A stretch of 7,738 nucleotides of DNA from a virus (lineage: Duplodnaviria > Heunggongvirae > Uroviricota > Caudoviricetes): IMG/VR virus record IMGVR_UViG_2802429219_000018; one strand, written 5' to 3'. Positions 2,908-7,738 of the stretch are shown one piece after another. Position numbers and translations under genes: made by a program. Numbering within the stretch: the first letter of the stretch is position 1; the number at the start of each line of letters is the position of its first letter. The notes beneath the pieces are model-generated. The model saw nothing but the letters and a program-made list of their open reading frames with translations. It was not told where the DNA came from and searched no databases.

Positions 2908-3108
2908 TTATTTTCCTGTCAGCAGTTCCGGTTTTATTCCTGCACTAATACAGAGTTCAGAAAAGCCTTCTGCCGTACTTACAATTTCATTATTTCGCAG
3001 CCGGCATTGTGATTTCACTTTCCCTTTATCCAGGTAAACCAGTATGCGTCCGGTGAAATCCTCTGGCACATTCAGGGTAATTGTCATTGTTGCTGGCTTA
3101 TTACCCAT
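2908..3108 (-). CDS. Hypothetical 66-aa protein carrying one copy of an 'FTG' repeat domain
   Basis: The ATG overlaps the upstream stop as ATGGGTAA (3101-3108). A G8 run (complement of C8 at 3115-3122) sits 6 nt upstream and is SD-like. The domain FTGRILVYLDKGKVKSQCRLRNNEIVSTAEGFSELCISAG is paralogous to two segments of the upstream 122-aa ORF. An alternative start at M8 cannot be excluded. Confidence 0.6.
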   Translation of the reverse strand: MGNKPATMTITLNVPEDFTGRILVYLDKGKVKSQCRLRNNEIVSTAEGFSELCISAGIKPELLTGK

Positions 3109-3469
3109 GGTTCACCCCCCCCTGAATGACCTGATAACCGCAACTGGTCAGCAATTCGATAAATTCCGGCAGTGTGCCGAAACAGCAATCATCACGCAGC
3201 CGTTCGCGGGATACCTCGACGCCGTTTTCGTAGTGACTCACCATGCGTCCGGTAAAATGCAGATCATCATCGTGATGGCACGTTAACGGCTTAATCAGTC
3301 GCGCACGTTCCGCCAGTTCCAGCAATGCTTCAACGCTTCCGGCAATTGCACCATCCGGCAGGTGGTAATTACGCACTATGCGCCCGTTCTCCACATTGAC
3401 CAGCAACTGCCCGGTAAATTTCTCGTCAAACTGAATGCTGTTAAGGTCAGAAATTGACAGGTTATGCAT
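3101..3469 (-). CDS. Hypothetical 122-aa protein with two tandem copies of the 'FTG' repeat domain
   Basis: ATG at 3469 with GGAGG 6 nt upstream. It overlaps the upstream stop as ATGCATAA (3462-3469). The internal repeat is FTGQLLVNVENGRIV...GSVEALLELAERA (from aa 18) versus FTGRMVSHYENGVEV...GTLPEFIELLTSCG (from aa 72). Confidence 0.7.
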   Translation of the reverse strand: MHNLSISDLNSIQFDEKFTGQLLVNVENGRIVRNYHLPDGAIAGSVEALLELAERARLIKPLTCHHDDDLHFTGRMVSHYENGVEVSRERLRDDCCFGTLPEFIELLTSCGYQVIQGGVNHG

Positions 3470-3665
3470 GGTGCACCTCCTGGCGAATACGGGCAGCGAA
3501 TACCATCACGCAGCCATCAGGAGATTGCTGACGCGCTTCCTGTTCGCTGATGGCCTCGATGTGAATTACGCGCGGTTGTGCCGTACTCAGGGCGATAAAA
3601 CGCCAGATATATTTATTCAGGTTGTGCGAGTCCCGCCCTTGCGGGTGTGTGGTATGATTTCTCAT
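3462..3665 (-). CDS. Icd-like / Ash-like small protein, 67 aa (uses an internal start of the 331-aa track ORF)
   Basis: ATG at 3665 is preceded by GAGGT (3674..3670). The sequence MRNHTTHPQGRDSHNLNKYIWRFIALSTAQPRVIHIEAISEQEARQQSPDGCVMVFAARIRQEVHHA fits the pattern I recall for phage Icd-like proteins (aromatic-x-W/F-x-F-x-A ... A-x-SE-x-EAR ... F-A-A-R). It is the first gene of the coupled operon. The family call is from memory. Confidence 0.65.
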   Translation of the reverse strand: MRNHTTHPQGRDSHNLNKYIWRFIALSTAQPRVIHIEAISEQEARQQSPDGCVMVFAARIRQEVHHA

Positions 3666-3745
3666 AGCTACCTCGATACTGTTGCTATCGTTGGTGGTTA
3701 GAAGCCCGGTTAGTGTTAGCGCACTGCCGGGTTTCGTCGTTTTTA
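3665..3745 (+). ncRNA. Candidate ~80-nt cis-antisense RNA covering the SD/start of the Icd-like gene
   Basis: There is a plus-strand extended -10 (TG-g-TATGAT, 3650-3658) inside the Icd-like coding region, which predicts a start near 3665. The RNA has a 5' hairpin (cgata-ctgttgc-tatcg, 3674-3690) and then a plus-oriented terminator hairpin (3701-3735) with a U-rich tail to 3745. No plus-strand gene feeds this terminator. The start site and expression are untested. Confidence 0.35.
3701..3745 (+). terminator. Plus-strand-oriented intrinsic terminator-like hairpin in the leader region of the replication operon
   Basis: The stem pairs gaagcccggttagtg with cactgccgggtttc (14 pairs, one bulged U, 6-nt loop ttagcg), followed by gtcgttttta. 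Two of the pairs are G-U on the plus RNA (3704/3732 and 3711/3726) and would be C-A mismatches on the minus RNA. The U-rich tail exists only in the plus orientation. Confidence 0.45.
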
Positions 3746-3754
3746 TGAATCGAT

Positions 3755-3860
3755 CATTGTGAGATACATAGTCATCACAATGTGAGATATACATTATATT
3801 GTGGTGATATACATTGCAAGTGTTTTTATATCTCACTTTTGTGTATAGTGATATACACAT
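3755..3860. promoter_or_regulatory. Operator array and divergent promoter region between the RHH gene (+) and the Icd-like/primase operon (-)
   Basis: Five copies of GTGA(G)ATA(TA)CA: 3759-3770, 3782-3795, 3804-3815, an inverted copy at 3827-3836, and 3848-3860. They are phased at about 22 bp. An 8-bp inverted repeat CATTGTGA/TCACAATG lies at 3755-3762 and 3775-3782. A perfect minus-strand TATAAT (3798..3793) has a palindromic TTGCAA (3814-3819) 15 bp upstream. A plus-strand TATAGT lies at 3844-3849. The promoter assignments are tentative. Confidence 0.65.
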
Positions 3861-3879
3861 AACTAATTGGTGATTAACT

Positions 3880-4182
3880 ATGTCTGTATACAAAAATGCA
3901 AAATCGCAAATGACAACGATCAGGGTTCCCCACGATGTTATGGAGGGTATGGAATCCGTAAAACTGGACGGCGAAAGCAACGCCGGATTCATAGTAACCG
4001 CCATGCGTGGTGAGATCGCCCGCCGCCAGGCAGAAGGAAGAGGAGAAAATCCCCTGGTTTCTTCGCTCGATGCACTGGCGCAGGTGGAAAAAATCGGAGT
4101 CAAAGCAGCCGAGGAGATCGGGCAGCTCGTCACCGTCGCGCGTGAAGAACTCCAGCGCCGCAAGGCCAAAGAACAGGAGTAG
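3880..4182 (+). CDS. Ribbon-helix-helix-like small DNA-binding protein (YlcI/YnfO-like), 100 aa; candidate island repressor
   Basis: The N-terminal segment TTIRVPHDVMEGMESVKLDGESNAGFIVTAMRGEIARR has a strand-helix-helix pattern like the YlcI segment IRFPNQMIEQINIALEQKGSGNFSAWVIEACRRRL (from memory). The C-terminal half is charged and helical. It is the only plus-strand gene and sits next to the operator array. The antisense ORFs over it (3874-4200 and 3462-4457) are Ser/Cys-rich shadow-type sequence. Confidence 0.7.
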   Translation: MSVYKNAKSQMTTIRVPHDVMEGMESVKLDGESNAGFIVTAMRGEIARRQAEGRGENPLVSSLDALAQVEKIGVKAAEEIGQLVTVAREELQRRKAKEQE

Positions 4183-4457
4183 TTGATCAGCACCGGGCAA
4201 CCAGAAAAAATCGTATCAGTCGCGCTACCAGCAAAATTTTTTGCTTTCCGGACAGCGTGGCCAACGGCATTTTGCAGCAAAATATTCTGCATTTCTGGCG
4301 TGCTGTAGTAACGGTGATCAGCGCCTTCACATTGAACGAACTTGTCGCTAAAATTCACCCATATAGCAAACATCGCGGTGCTACAGGTAATTCGTTCACA
4401 AAGGCGCTCCGGCAACGGGGCGCTTTCTCTTTTTGTAACGGTCAGAGCGTTACACAT
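4183..4457 (-). other. 5' segment of the long minus-strand ORF: a translationally coupled start with no local stop codon
   Basis: The ATG at 4457 overlaps the ant-like stop as ATGTGTAA, with GGAGG 9 nt upstream. The first ~90 codons (MCNALTVTKRESAPLPERLCERITCSTAMFAIWVNFSDKFVQCEGADHRYYSTPEMQNILLQNAVGHAVRKAKNF...) look protein-like and have no competing gene. The frame stays open to 3462, so the 3' end is undefined. Confidence 0.3.
4401..4434 (+). terminator. Rho-independent terminator, plus-strand orientation, about 220 nt downstream of the RHH gene's stop
   Basis: aaggcgctccg-GCAA-cggggcgcttt forms an 11-bp stem (two G-U pairs on the plus RNA) with a GNRA tetraloop, followed by ctctttttg. 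The minus-strand equivalent has C-A mismatches and only a UUUGUG tail. Confidence 0.6.
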
Positions 4458-5250
4458 GGCTGTTTTCCTCCATGCGACGGGCTAACCAACGCTGCGAAAG
4501 ACGAATTAATTCAGCTTTCCGCTGGTGGTAGTCCTGGCCTAACTCAATCAGCGTGATATTGCTCTGCTCAAGGTAAGAAAGGTGCTCAAGCTGCAATGTG
4601 CTCATGTGGTCGCGTGGTTCGCCTGTGATGTCGTTCGCCTGCGCCCACTGTTTTGCAGTCATGCCACCCAGCACGATACGCGCCAGCATGTTCGCTTCCG
4701 TGGTGTAGTGGTGCTGGAGTGTGTTTTTACCCAGTTCAGCCCGGTACGCCTCCAGCGCGGCACACATTGGCTTAAAGTAGCTGGCAACTGTGATACGGGC
4801 TTTCAGTTCCCGGCGTAACGCTGCGGAACGCACTGGCGCTACCTTGTGTAGCTCCTCCTCGCATTTGATGAAGTACTGACGAACGGCGCGGCCCTGTTCG
4901 GTGCGTTCGACCATCGCCAGTTCTTTCGCCATGTTGATAGTGCTCAGGTAGTCGTGCTCTATACGTTGGCGAGATTTTGCGCTCACCGGATTGGGGGAGG
5001 TCAAATTTTCTACGAATTCAAAATCCACGCCCTTTTTAAATCCGTACTCATCAATGCGTCCTTTAATCCAGGTTGTGAAATCACGGCCTACCCCGAGCGC
5101 CTTATGCAACGCTCTGGCGCTAACAATATTGGTTTCACGCCCGCCAATAACGCCGGAAATAACCGGGATAATTTCGCCAAAATTTTGCAGATTCTGGTTT
5201 TCAGGCCGAACGAAGCCCTGCCCCTGTACGGGCGTTTTTGGAAATTTCAT
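4450..5250 (-). CDS. AntA/AntB-family phage antirepressor homolog, 266 aa
   Basis: ATG at 5250 with AGGAG 5 nt upstream. The N-terminal half (VSARALHKALGVGRDFTTWIKGRIDEYGFKKGVDF...INMAKELAMVERTEQGRAVRQYFIKCEEEL) matches the AntA domain pattern. The C-terminal half is helical and of uncertain family. Confidence 0.85.
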   Translation of the reverse strand: MKFPKTPVQGQGFVRPENQNLQNFGEIIPVISGVIGGRETNIVSARALHKALGVGRDFTTWIKGRIDEYGFKKGVDFEFVENLTSPNPVSAKSRQRIEHDYLSTINMAKELAMVERTEQGRAVRQYFIKCEEELHKVAPVRSAALRRELKARITVASYFKPMCAALEAYRAELGKNTLQHHYTTEANMLARIVLGGMTAKQWAQANDITGEPRDHMSTLQLEHLSYLEQSNITLIELGQDYHQRKAELIRLSQRWLARRMEENSHV

Positions 5251-5327: not shown

Positions 5328-5525
5328 TCAGGTAGCTGTTCCGCGTGATTCCGCAATACGCTGATTAATCCACTCGTCAATTTCACTCTCAACGAAAGCA
5401 ATCGCTCGCGAGCCAATTTTTACAGGTTTAGGAAAACGCCCTTGGGCAATGAGTTTATAGATCCATGCCCTGCCATAGCCTGTACGGCGCATGGTTTCTG
5501 GCATACGAATTAAAGATTGTGACAT
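5328..5525 (-). CDS. alpA: AlpA-family (excisionase-like HTH) transcriptional regulator, 65 aa
   Basis: MSQSLIRMPETMRRTGYGRAWIYKLIAQGRFPKPVKIGSRAIAFVESEIDEWI is the classic AlpA/Phage_AlpA signature. I chose the internal ATG at 5525 (GGGAGA about 8 nt upstream) over the track start at 5594, because that start lies inside the palindromic operator. Confidence 0.85.
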   Translation of the reverse strand: MSQSLIRMPETMRRTGYGRAWIYKLIAQGRFPKPVKIGSRAIAFVESEIDEWINQRIAESRGTAT

Positions 5526-5590
5526 GATAATCGTCTCCCGTTGTTTATTGATGCCTACGGGAGACATTGAAGCAGGTAAGACATTGGATA

Positions 5591-5629
5591 TCACCGCAAT
5601 TGCGGTGAATGATACCGCAATTGCGGTAT
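5591..5629. promoter_or_regulatory. Twin 18-bp perfect palindromes (core ACCGCAATTGCGGT) upstream of alpA; putative dimer-binding operators
   Basis: TCACCGCAATTGCGGTGA (5591-5608) and ATACCGCAATTGCGGTAT (5612-5629) are each perfectly self-complementary. Their centres are exactly 21 bp apart. They lie between the 251-aa gene's stop (5640) and the alpA start (5525). Confidence 0.7.
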
Positions 5630-6395: not shown

Positions 6396-6523
6396 TCTGT
6401 GCTACCTCGCACCCTCTGTAAAAGTGGCTGTGCCAGCCCGCAGAGGTGTACGGGTTTTCAGGAGCGACCCTAGACACAGCCTTTTCTTAATCGCTCAAAG
6501 TCTACTACTGTATACTCAACCAG

Positions 6524-7738
6524 TCACCCGCATTTTCCGAACTCACCATGCACCACATTTCCGCCATGCTCGAGCGAATCCATATAATCGGCGTACCACT
6601 GAAGCATTTCCCGCCGTCCATCCAGATATTGCGCATGGTTGTATGTGCCACGAATTGAGTTTTTATCGACGTGTGCGAGCTGCGTCTCTATCCATGCGGT
6701 GTTATAGCCCTGCTCATGCAAAATGGTGCTCATGGTGTGCCGGAATCCATGACCAGTAACCTTTCCGTTATAGCCGATGCGTTTAAATACTTGGTTTATG
6801 CTAGCCTCGCTCATTGTTTTCCTTGGATCATTACGGCCGGGAAACATAAGCGGATAATTGCCAGTTAATTCTTTAATCTGCCCAATAAGAGAAAGAGCCT
6901 GCTTAGACAAAGGCACCACATGAGGGCGACGCATTTTCATCCGTGAAGCAGGTATCTCCCAGATAGCCTTGTTGAGATCGATTTCATCCCATAATGCACC
7001 GCGCAGTTCGCCAGTTCGCAAACCAGTGATAATCAGTAGACGAGCCGCCATAACAACCAATGCACTTCCTGAGTAACTGGACAATGCCTTGAAAAAATCA
7101 GGCAATTCTTTGGCTGTGAGGAAAGGATAATGATTAGATTCATGGCCTTGCATCGCGCTAGTAAGATCTGGGGCAGGGTTATACTCTGCGCGACCAGTGA
7201 CTATTGCATAGCGGAAAACTTCCCCACACCGCTGCCTCACTTTTTTGGCTTTTTCTGTAGCACCGCGCCCCTCGATGCGTCGCAGCACATTCAGAAGTTC
7301 AAGTGGTTTGATTTCGGCGATTGGTTTTTTGCCAATGTAAGGGAACACATCTTTGTTGAAGGCTTCGAGGATGTCTGAAGCATAACCAGCAGACCATTTT
7401 TTTAATTTGCTGCTGTGCCACTCAAGGGCAATATCTTTGAAGGTGTTGTTTAACTGCGTTTCCCGGGCAATCTTTTCCTCTCGTTTCGCTTCCATCGGAT
7501 CGATACCCCCAGCGATACCCCTTTTAGCTTCTTCACGTTTTGCACGAGCATCAGCCAAGGTAACTTCAGGATACACACCTAGTGCTAACAGCTTCTCTTT
7601 ACCAGCTACACGATACTTGAAGCGCCAATATTTTCCTCCACTAGGTTTTACCAAGAGATACAGACCACCACCATCAGCCAGCTTGTAAGCCTTCTCTTTT
7701 GGCTTGGCAGTGTCTATTTGACGGGCATTGAGTTTCAC
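6524..7738 (-). CDS. int: P4-type (DUF4102 N-terminal arm) tyrosine integrase, 404 aa as read; 5' end coincides with the window edge
   Basis: The N-terminus ARQIDTAKPKEKAYKLADGGGLYLLVKPSGGKYWRFKYR is typical of the P4/CP4 integrase family. Catalytic motifs are TGLRTGELR, GHGFRHT and RGTYNHAQY, and GEVFRYAIVTGRAEYNPAPDL is shared with IntS-like integrases. The first codon in the window is GTG. The true start may be here or a few codons beyond the window. Confidence 0.9.
   Translation of the reverse strand: MKLNARQIDTAKPKEKAYKLADGGGLYLLVKPSGGKYWRFKYRVAGKEKLLALGVYPEVTLADARAKREEAKRGIAGGIDPMEAKREEKIARETQLNNTFKDIALEWHSSKLKKWSAGYASDILEAFNKDVFPYIGKKPIAEIKPLELLNVLRRIEGRGATEKAKKVRQRCGEVFRYAIVTGRAEYNPAPDLTSAMQGHESNHYPFLTAKELPDFFKALSSYSGSALVVMAARLLIITGLRTGELRGALWDEIDLNKAIWEIPASRMKMRRPHVVPLSKQALSLIGQIKELTGNYPLMFPGRNDPRKTMSEASINQVFKRIGYNGKVTGHGFRHTMSTILHEQGYNTAWIETQLAHVDKNSIRGTYNHAQYLDGRREMLQWYADYMDSLEHGGNVVHGEFGKCG

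Follow-up and report, generated by a model that had tools for sequence, protein, structure and literature searches.

Which task do two small overlapping genes fulfil when they lie between the immunity region and the primase gene of an E. coli phage-satellite island, and do their products belong to a known protein family? This question was raised by the first-pass annotation of the 7,738-nucleotide stretch of viral DNA analysed here (hereafter the window), which had noticed three related segments carrying an F-T-G motif in the products of a 122-codon and a 66-codon ORF (referred to as ORF122 and ORF66) but had recognised no family. We show below that the three segments are diverged copies of one domain, which very probably belongs to the Rem family, and discuss whether the two proteins may act as antirepressors.

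Organization of the island and of its gene junctions

The gene order of the window is a P4-like/PICI-type phage-satellite layout. On the minus strand, it comprises a tyrosine integrase gene (positions 6524–7738), a 251-aa ORF, the gene for AlpA (5328–5594) and that for an AntA-type protein (4450–5250). A YlcI/YnfO-family gene (3880–4182; NCBIfam 5.4e-20) is carried by the plus strand and diverges from a minus-strand operon composed of (i) an Icd-like small ORF (3462–3665; NCBIfam phage_ICD_like, E 6e-19; 67 aa as called in locus L020); (ii) ORF122 (3101–3469), supported by the ORF list, the family HMM, phrog_340 and dN/dS values; (iii) ORF66 (2908–3108; family HMM, E 1.1e-28); (iv) the gene for a DUF4222 protein, a conserved downstream neighbour (2613–2903; Pfam PF13973, E 1.4e-19); and (v) a DUF927 primase/helicase gene, the last of the operon (478–2616; Pfam PF06048, E 7.9e-45). 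The exact ORF122 protein is also encoded on an Escherichia assembly contig, in which the island adjoins proBA. A published E. coli PICI carries integrase, AlpA, antirepressor, primase and PerC genes (PMC11773190). Two further features were observed. The Icd-like ORF can be extended upstream into a 331-aa open frame (3462–4457, minus strand) that runs across the YlcI/YnfO gene; this frame is almost certainly not a gene, because the Icd-like products of relatives are annotated with 59–158 aa and the call in L020 has 67 aa. The Rfam int-alpA RNA (RF02996) matches positions 6412–6480 of the minus strand, between the integrase gene and the 251-aa ORF, with 49.8 bits, above the gathering score.

Control of the operon is probably exerted in the divergent region 3700–3900, in which a repeat search detected operator-like direct (D1–D3) and inverted (I1–I2) repeats of the GTGAGATATACA type (3755–3874) between the YlcI/YnfO gene and the Icd-like ORF; their sequence makes them candidate operators. 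The YlcI/YnfO family takes its name from genes of the DLP12 and Qin prophages. The only Pfam match of its member in the window is a weak one to the Rv0623-like transcription factor family (E 0.021); the protein may therefore be the DNA-binding regulator of the island.

ORF122 and ORF66 overlap tightly, as the first-pass annotation had proposed: they share 8 nt, ATGGGTAA, at positions 3101–3108 of the minus strand. The Icd-like ORF and ORF122 also share 8 nt, ATGCATAA (3462–3469, minus strand), with GGAGG located 8 nt upstream, and at both junctions a GGAGG-type Shine-Dalgarno sequence lies inside the upstream ORF. More generally, nearly every small ORF of the array extending from the Icd-like gene to the DUF4222 gene connects with its successor through cAGGAGGTGnnncATGnnTAA (or ATGCGTGA), with an 8-nt overlap. 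This standardised junction, with the Shine-Dalgarno sequence in the upstream ORF, was observed in the window, in loci L001, L002, L003, L005, L008, L012, L015 and L016–L019, and in P4, and it explains why the encoded proteins start with MHN, MGN, MCN, MIN or MRD and end with H-(A/G/H/V). These 8-nt junctions are sites at which unrelated cassettes are exchanged, and frameshift fusions are found as well (P0001, P0006).

Three diverged copies of one domain

The domain is present in three copies of about 45–60 aa, two in ORF122 and one in ORF66, and the F-T-G motifs lie where they had been placed, at aa 18–20 and 72–74 of ORF122 and at aa 18–20 of ORF66. The similarity is also visible in the DNA: the 16-mers at 3044–3059 (atgcgtccggtgaaat) and 3243–3258 (atgcgtccggtaaaat), which code for (D/H)FTGR(I/M), are identical at 15 of 16 positions, in keeping with the original observation, and the difference in base composition noticed at the same time holds too (38.3 % GC at 2941–3000, 60.0 % at 3301–3360). 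Pairwise local BLOSUM62 scores of the three copies are 54, 62 and 58, against an average of about 20 for shuffled sequences, and not one of 2000 shuffles scored as high (z 8.6–10.7). Profile-based repeat detection likewise gave a positive result, since HMMs built from the relatives of one copy detect the other two with E-values from 4e-8 to 2.6e-5. The family HMM (A3) delineates two domains in ORF122 (E 3.7e-18 and 2e-17), and the phrog_340 HMM, which has no annotated function, matches ORF122 in two stretches (1.2e-29), ORF66 in one (1.2e-16) and also the single-domain relative P0058 (1.4e-22).

Domain 1 of ORF122 (aa 1–61; 3287–3469, minus strand; columns 1–60 of the HMM profile) consists of a leader strand, the FTG β-hairpin and a helix, and domain 2 (aa 71–117; 3119–3259, minus strand; columns 18–64) of the hairpin and the helix without the leader strand. 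AlphaFold2, run with an alignment of 44 diverse relatives, gave a confident model of ORF66 (pLDDT 89) with an extended N-terminal segment, strands 21–27 and 30–37 and helix 46–55. The ORF122 monomer model is poor (pLDDT 48) and based on a shallow alignment; it displays the hairpin–helix pattern twice, with predicted strands 22–27 and 30–36 and helix 46–55 in domain 1, and strands 75–81 and 84–91 and helix 100–109 in domain 2. A β-hairpin followed by a helix is thus the predicted common core of all three copies. The family consensus reads L-x-V-x3-FTGRVLV-x2-ENG-x-V-x5-L-x2-(D/N)E-x-V-x-TL-x2-F-x-ELA-x2-AGY. Fold searches returned nothing informative, and a search of PDB sequences with the family profile returned noise only, with no solved relative; the sequence pattern had suggested a fold of the HicB/UPF0150 type, which was dropped since the fold searches gave it no support.

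A profile of the three repeats and their close relatives retrieved 110 proteins at E ≤ 0.001 among 1.84 billion cluster representatives, most of which are single-domain proteins of 56–90 aa. Searches of other kinds returned little: no match to ORF122 was obtained by tblastn among 50,697 phage records, a related-locus search with ORF66 alone retrieved a single species locus, in E. ruysiae, and Pfam and NCBIfam scans of ORF122 and ORF66 matched no model, nor did a Pfam scan of the 44 relatives, the Pfam copy used in both cases predating the Rem model PF27490. Could the similarity then be fortuitous, or the ORFs not be genes at all? Their small size and the lack of a matching model in the Pfam and NCBIfam copies used are in favour of this explanation, which we nevertheless regard as effectively ruled out by the shuffling scores, the cross-detection by profiles, the phrog_340 match, the 110 cluster representatives, the confident model of ORF66 and the purifying selection on ORF122. 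The purifying selection to be expected of coding ORFs is indeed strong on ORF122 (dN/dS 0.06–0.21 at dS 0.2–0.35) and weaker on ORF66 (0.2–0.8). Amino acid replacements in ORF66 have accumulated in the N-terminal tail and in the loop formed by aa 38–48, a clustering that would be expected of a specificity surface.

The proposal that the copies are recruited paralogues rather than products of local duplication is borne out by their relationships: identity among the three is 25–32 %, against 40–57 % with domains found elsewhere. In the distant two-domain proteins P0103 and P0105, the first domain matches domain 1 of ORF122 and the second matches domain 2, which indicates that the two-domain fusion is old. 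ORF66 belongs to a lineage of its own, with a single domain and another GC3: this value is 0.58 in the Icd-like ORF and ORF122 and 0.36–0.37 in ORF66 and the primase gene, a break that points to a recombination joint at the ORF122/ORF66 junction. Of the 71 cluster representatives whose domain is nearly complete, 65 contain a single copy and six contain two, and no chain combines three copies. In E. coli, 690 of 5,426 complete genomes contain one or more Rem-domain pieces of the locus, and 200 contain both ORFs. Some islands carry ORF122 only, ORF66 only, a one-domain form, or an unrelated 77-aa ORF inserted between both genes; in-register FTG-to-FTG deletions have produced 67-aa single-domain proteins (P0046, P0047, P0049), and out-of-register hybrids occur as well (P0033, P0036, P0040, P0048, P0051). 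The first-pass annotation had suggested that the pair forms a pseudo-trimeric or hetero-oligomeric module. Such an assembly may exist, but one that requires all three domains is unlikely, because these islands lack the second domain or the third copy, or have the genes separated, and because collapsed variants are found.

The position of the domain is conserved in divergent int–AlpA/HTH_17 islands, where it lies upstream of the replicase gene, usually with DUF4222 in between (the latter is also a neighbour in loci L003, L008, L012 and L015). The adjacent replicase is of the DUF927, D5/DUF5906 or RepA helicase type. The proteins encoded at this position include P0116 (from Salmonella, 45 % identical to ORF66), P0121, P0142, P0161, P0165 and the single-domain form of O157:H7. 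Other members are found in prophages with no primase nearby, for instance K-12 Rem, in Qin, and the Bro-N–Rem fusion P0132, encoded beside a lysis cassette. Besides P0132, Rem-domain fusions were observed with an AntA N-terminus (P0052, which contains a counterpart of ORF122 domain 2) and with a DnaG-type CHC2 zinc ribbon (P0174).

Relationship to the Rem family

The lack of a recognisable family, as stated at the outset, has to be corrected: profile searches and hhalign connect the domain to the Rem family (PF27490/phrog_340). The namesake, K-12 Rem, is the product of gene b1561 in the Qin cryptic prophage of E. coli K-12. The profile of the window repeats retrieved P0170 (E 1.3e-4, among 1.84 billion proteins), which represents the cluster of K-12 Rem (phmmer against Rem, 4.1e-27). 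Alignment of 44 single-domain relatives with K-12 Rem by hhalign gave a probability of 94.1 % (E 1.3e-7, 42 columns), with Rem residues 38–79 placed on ORF66 residues 19–60; the similarity is remote, with about 26 % identity over these 42 residues. Conversely, a profile built from Rem and P0170 alone detected ORF66 (2.3e-8) and ORF122 (5.7e-5, at aa 18–56), and P0175, which displays the FTG motif and matches Rem (6.4e-8), bridges the two groups. Precomputed matches to PF27490 'Rem' exist for the relatives P0132, P0022 and P0024, and faint ones for P0103 and P0161; the precomputed records contain none for the exact ORF122 protein of the window, nor for P0116, P0121, P0142 and P0165. Since ORF122 and several relatives have no such record, the FTG proteins form a divergent wing of PF27490 that is partly covered by the curated model. 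Judging from these sequence comparisons, the domain of ORF122 and ORF66 very probably belongs to the Rem family.

K-12 Rem is, like the proteins of the window, a small protein encoded by a mobile element, and it shares with them the β-hairpin with its NG turn, the L-x-x-(D/N)-E segment and the helix ending in AG(Y/F/W). It differs from them in that it has an extra N-terminal hairpin of its own and no FTG motif, contains one domain copy instead of the two plus one of ORF122/ORF66, and has its gene in the nin-like region of a lambdoid prophage instead of ahead of a primase gene. Expression of rem increases the activity of dicBp-lacZ, a fusion to a DicA-repressed promoter, 165-fold, and causes filamentation that depends on dicB/dicF and the Qin prophage (Ragunathan et al., J Bacteriol 2023, PMC10448788). 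The authors concluded from the relief of DicA repression in vivo that Rem is an antirepressor of DicA, and reported that Rem was originally found by transitive PSI-BLAST starting from the Gifsy and Fels-1 antirepressors (PMC10448788).

A possible role as satellite antirepressors

Since the one tested member of the family inactivates the repressor of a prophage, the Rem domain is a probable tool of the island to wake helper prophages, and we assign a probability of roughly 0.5 to the reading, suggested by homology and by analogy with known systems, that ORF122 and ORF66 are Rem-family antirepressors directed against the repressors of a helper or co-resident prophage. The mechanism that we infer, including the binding of a repressor, its identity, the induction of the helper and the cooperation of the three domains, would be as follows. 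Expression of the early operon (the Icd-like gene, ORF122, ORF66 and the DUF4222 and primase genes), whose genes are chained by 8-nt overlaps, would yield three Rem domains from the two coupled ORFs; each hairpin–helix domain would bind a short, non-cleavable repressor of the CI/DicA/GfoR type made by the helper or by a co-resident prophage; and the bound repressor would leave its operators, so that the prophage needed by the satellite would be induced, in a manner parallel to the action of P4 epsilon, encoded in the same gene slot, on the P2 C repressor and to that of K-12 Rem on DicA. The covalent two-domain ORF122 protein may replace an antirepressor dimer, and the three diverged domains may broaden the range of repressors recognised. 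What speaks against the antirepressor reading is that an antirepressor induced by the helper would be partly redundant once the helper is itself induced.

P4 epsilon is the helper derepression protein of P4 and binds the P2 C repressor. The first-pass annotation had noted that the position of ORF122 and ORF66 is the one in which P4 keeps its helper-manipulating genes, and the P4 annotation (L021) agrees: epsilon lies between the immunity region and the alpha primase gene, in the order cI-region ORF, epsilon, orf151, orf106, alpha. Both junctions of epsilon are 8-nt overlaps, with the cI ORF at 8168–8175 and with orf151 at 7888–7895, and the former, ggaggtgtcccGTGcgTAAtaa, is of the same type as the junctions of the window. 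Like ORF122, epsilon thus directly follows an immunity-region ORF with an 8-nt overlap of the type GGAGGTGnnnc(A/G)TGnnTAA and is part of an operon that ends with the primase gene. Homology of sequence to epsilon was rejected, as the FTG/Rem HMM finds nothing in the six frames of P4 at E ≤ 1. Sharing slot and junction type, ORF122 therefore occupies the epsilon slot as a member of a different antirepressor family.

The order of genes in phage P1 is also relevant. Riedel et al. are said to have observed in 1993 that translation of P1 ant is coupled to that of icd. In the immI region of P1, icd immediately precedes the antirepressor genes, the order being c4, icd, ant1/2 (PMC6906374), so that, as in the window, an Icd-type gene stands just ahead of an antirepressor gene; Ant1/2 are large proteins, unlike ORF122 and ORF66. 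Rfam detects no C4 antisense RNA in the window. The Gifsy/Fels-1 antirepressors GfoA, GftA and FsoA are closer in size (about 70 aa); with repressor dimers they form A2B2 complexes, and their action in trans extends to several heteroimmune repressors (Lemire et al. 2011, PMC3121763). When aligned with the FTG profile, GftA falls into the register that would be expected, without significance, and homology was not retained: hhalign gave 11 % (E 0.0027) against GftA and 2.8 % against an alignment of seven GftA sequences. Whereas the Gifsy antirepressor genes are LexA-controlled and lie beside dinI, the operon of the window has neither feature: no LexA box was found in the promoter region 3700–3900 (elsewhere in the window, there are 4 one-mismatch matches for 2.3 expected), which implies a regulation different from that of the Gifsy antirepressors, and Pfam and NCBIfam scans of the window detected no dinI.

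Three other explanations start from the same set of observations. The Rem domain could be a general small protein-binding module, directed here against another helper or host protein, such as a late activator, a packaging or capsid protein, or a defence or division factor, with interference or anti-defence as the outcome. The function of only one family member, K-12 Rem, has been tested, the small ORFs in the array between the Icd-like and DUF4222 genes are unrelated and shuffled, which is also the case in accessory hotspots, ORF66 changes rapidly (dN/dS up to 0.8), and the domain has fusion partners as varied as Bro-N and the CHC2 zinc ribbon. Yet the sole functional datum for the family is antirepression, and both the epsilon slot of P4 and the Icd-then-antirepressor order shared with P1 immI point in the same direction, so that we hold this explanation to be rather unlikely. 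The fusion with the zinc ribbon (P0174) and the strict Rem–(DUF4222)–primase synteny in most islands examined could also indicate an accessory of replication acting with the DUF4222 protein and the primase/helicase, e.g. in origin recognition or loading. However, the replicase type changes from DUF927 to D5/DUF5906 or RepA while the Rem gene stays constant, K-12 Rem and other members reside in prophages far from any primase gene, and domain fusions are weak evidence because frameshifts at the 8-nt junctions easily generate them (as in P0001 and P0006); we therefore consider a replicative role very unlikely.

The target could finally be the island's own repressor, for which the YlcI/YnfO protein is the candidate, in which case a positive feedback loop would lock the island in its replicative state. 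This arrangement is suggested by the divergent orientation of the YlcI/YnfO gene and the operon, by the operator-like repeats between them and by the location of the Rem genes within the controlled operon. But the YlcI/YnfO protein is not a DicA-type HTH repressor, its sole Pfam match being the weak one given above, similar YlcI/YnfO genes are found in islands regardless of the number of Rem domains (one to three), and a single cognate repressor hardly explains three diverged domains; all this makes an internal target unlikely.

An extended version of the antirepressor reading deserves mention as a speculation in which we have little confidence: the three Rem domains would constitute a multi-specific 'master key' to several heteroimmune helper prophages, and the GGAGGTGnnncATGnnTAA junctions would make the region from the Icd-like gene to the DUF4222 gene a cassette array, in which antirepressor and anti-helper modules are exchanged by recombination at the junctions.

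The domain family is already published and curated, as is the antirepressor function of the protein that gave it its name; the presence of the Rem domain in satellites, its location in the epsilon slot and the two-plus-one architecture appear to be undescribed in the literature searched. If the antirepressor reading is correct, many int–AlpA–primase satellites of E. coli and Salmonella carry an active inducer of lambdoid helper prophages, and the principle exemplified by P4 epsilon extends to another protein family and to PICI-like islands. In that case, a first functional handle would also become available on a widespread family of 'hypothetical proteins' (phrog_340 and the divergent wing of PF27490), whose one-, two- and three-domain forms would be a natural series for mapping repressor specificity.

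Two minor observations concern the hairpin and the leader of the operon. The FTG hairpin (G-x-hydrophobic run-x-E-N-G-x-hydrophobic) is cross-matched by MORN_2 repeat proteins (P0106, P0129, P0131, P0139, P0167), and the N-terminus of K-12 Rem bears a second hairpin of this kind. In the MORN_2 proteins, only stretches of about 20–25 residues corresponding to the hairpin match, at multiple places along long repeat proteins, and the helix half is absent. Membership of ORF122 and ORF66 in MORN_2 was rejected, as neither has a Pfam MORN_2 match and the cross-matches are limited to the hairpin columns; we treat them as motif cross-hits. Finally, a sub-threshold Rfam match to the SymR antisense antitoxin RNA (3666–3738, plus strand; 32.9 bits for a gathering score of 61, E 4e-4) is placed opposite the leader in antisense orientation, immediately before the start codon of the Icd-like ORF; by analogy with c4/icd of P1, this SymR-like element may regulate the operon as a cis-antisense RNA.
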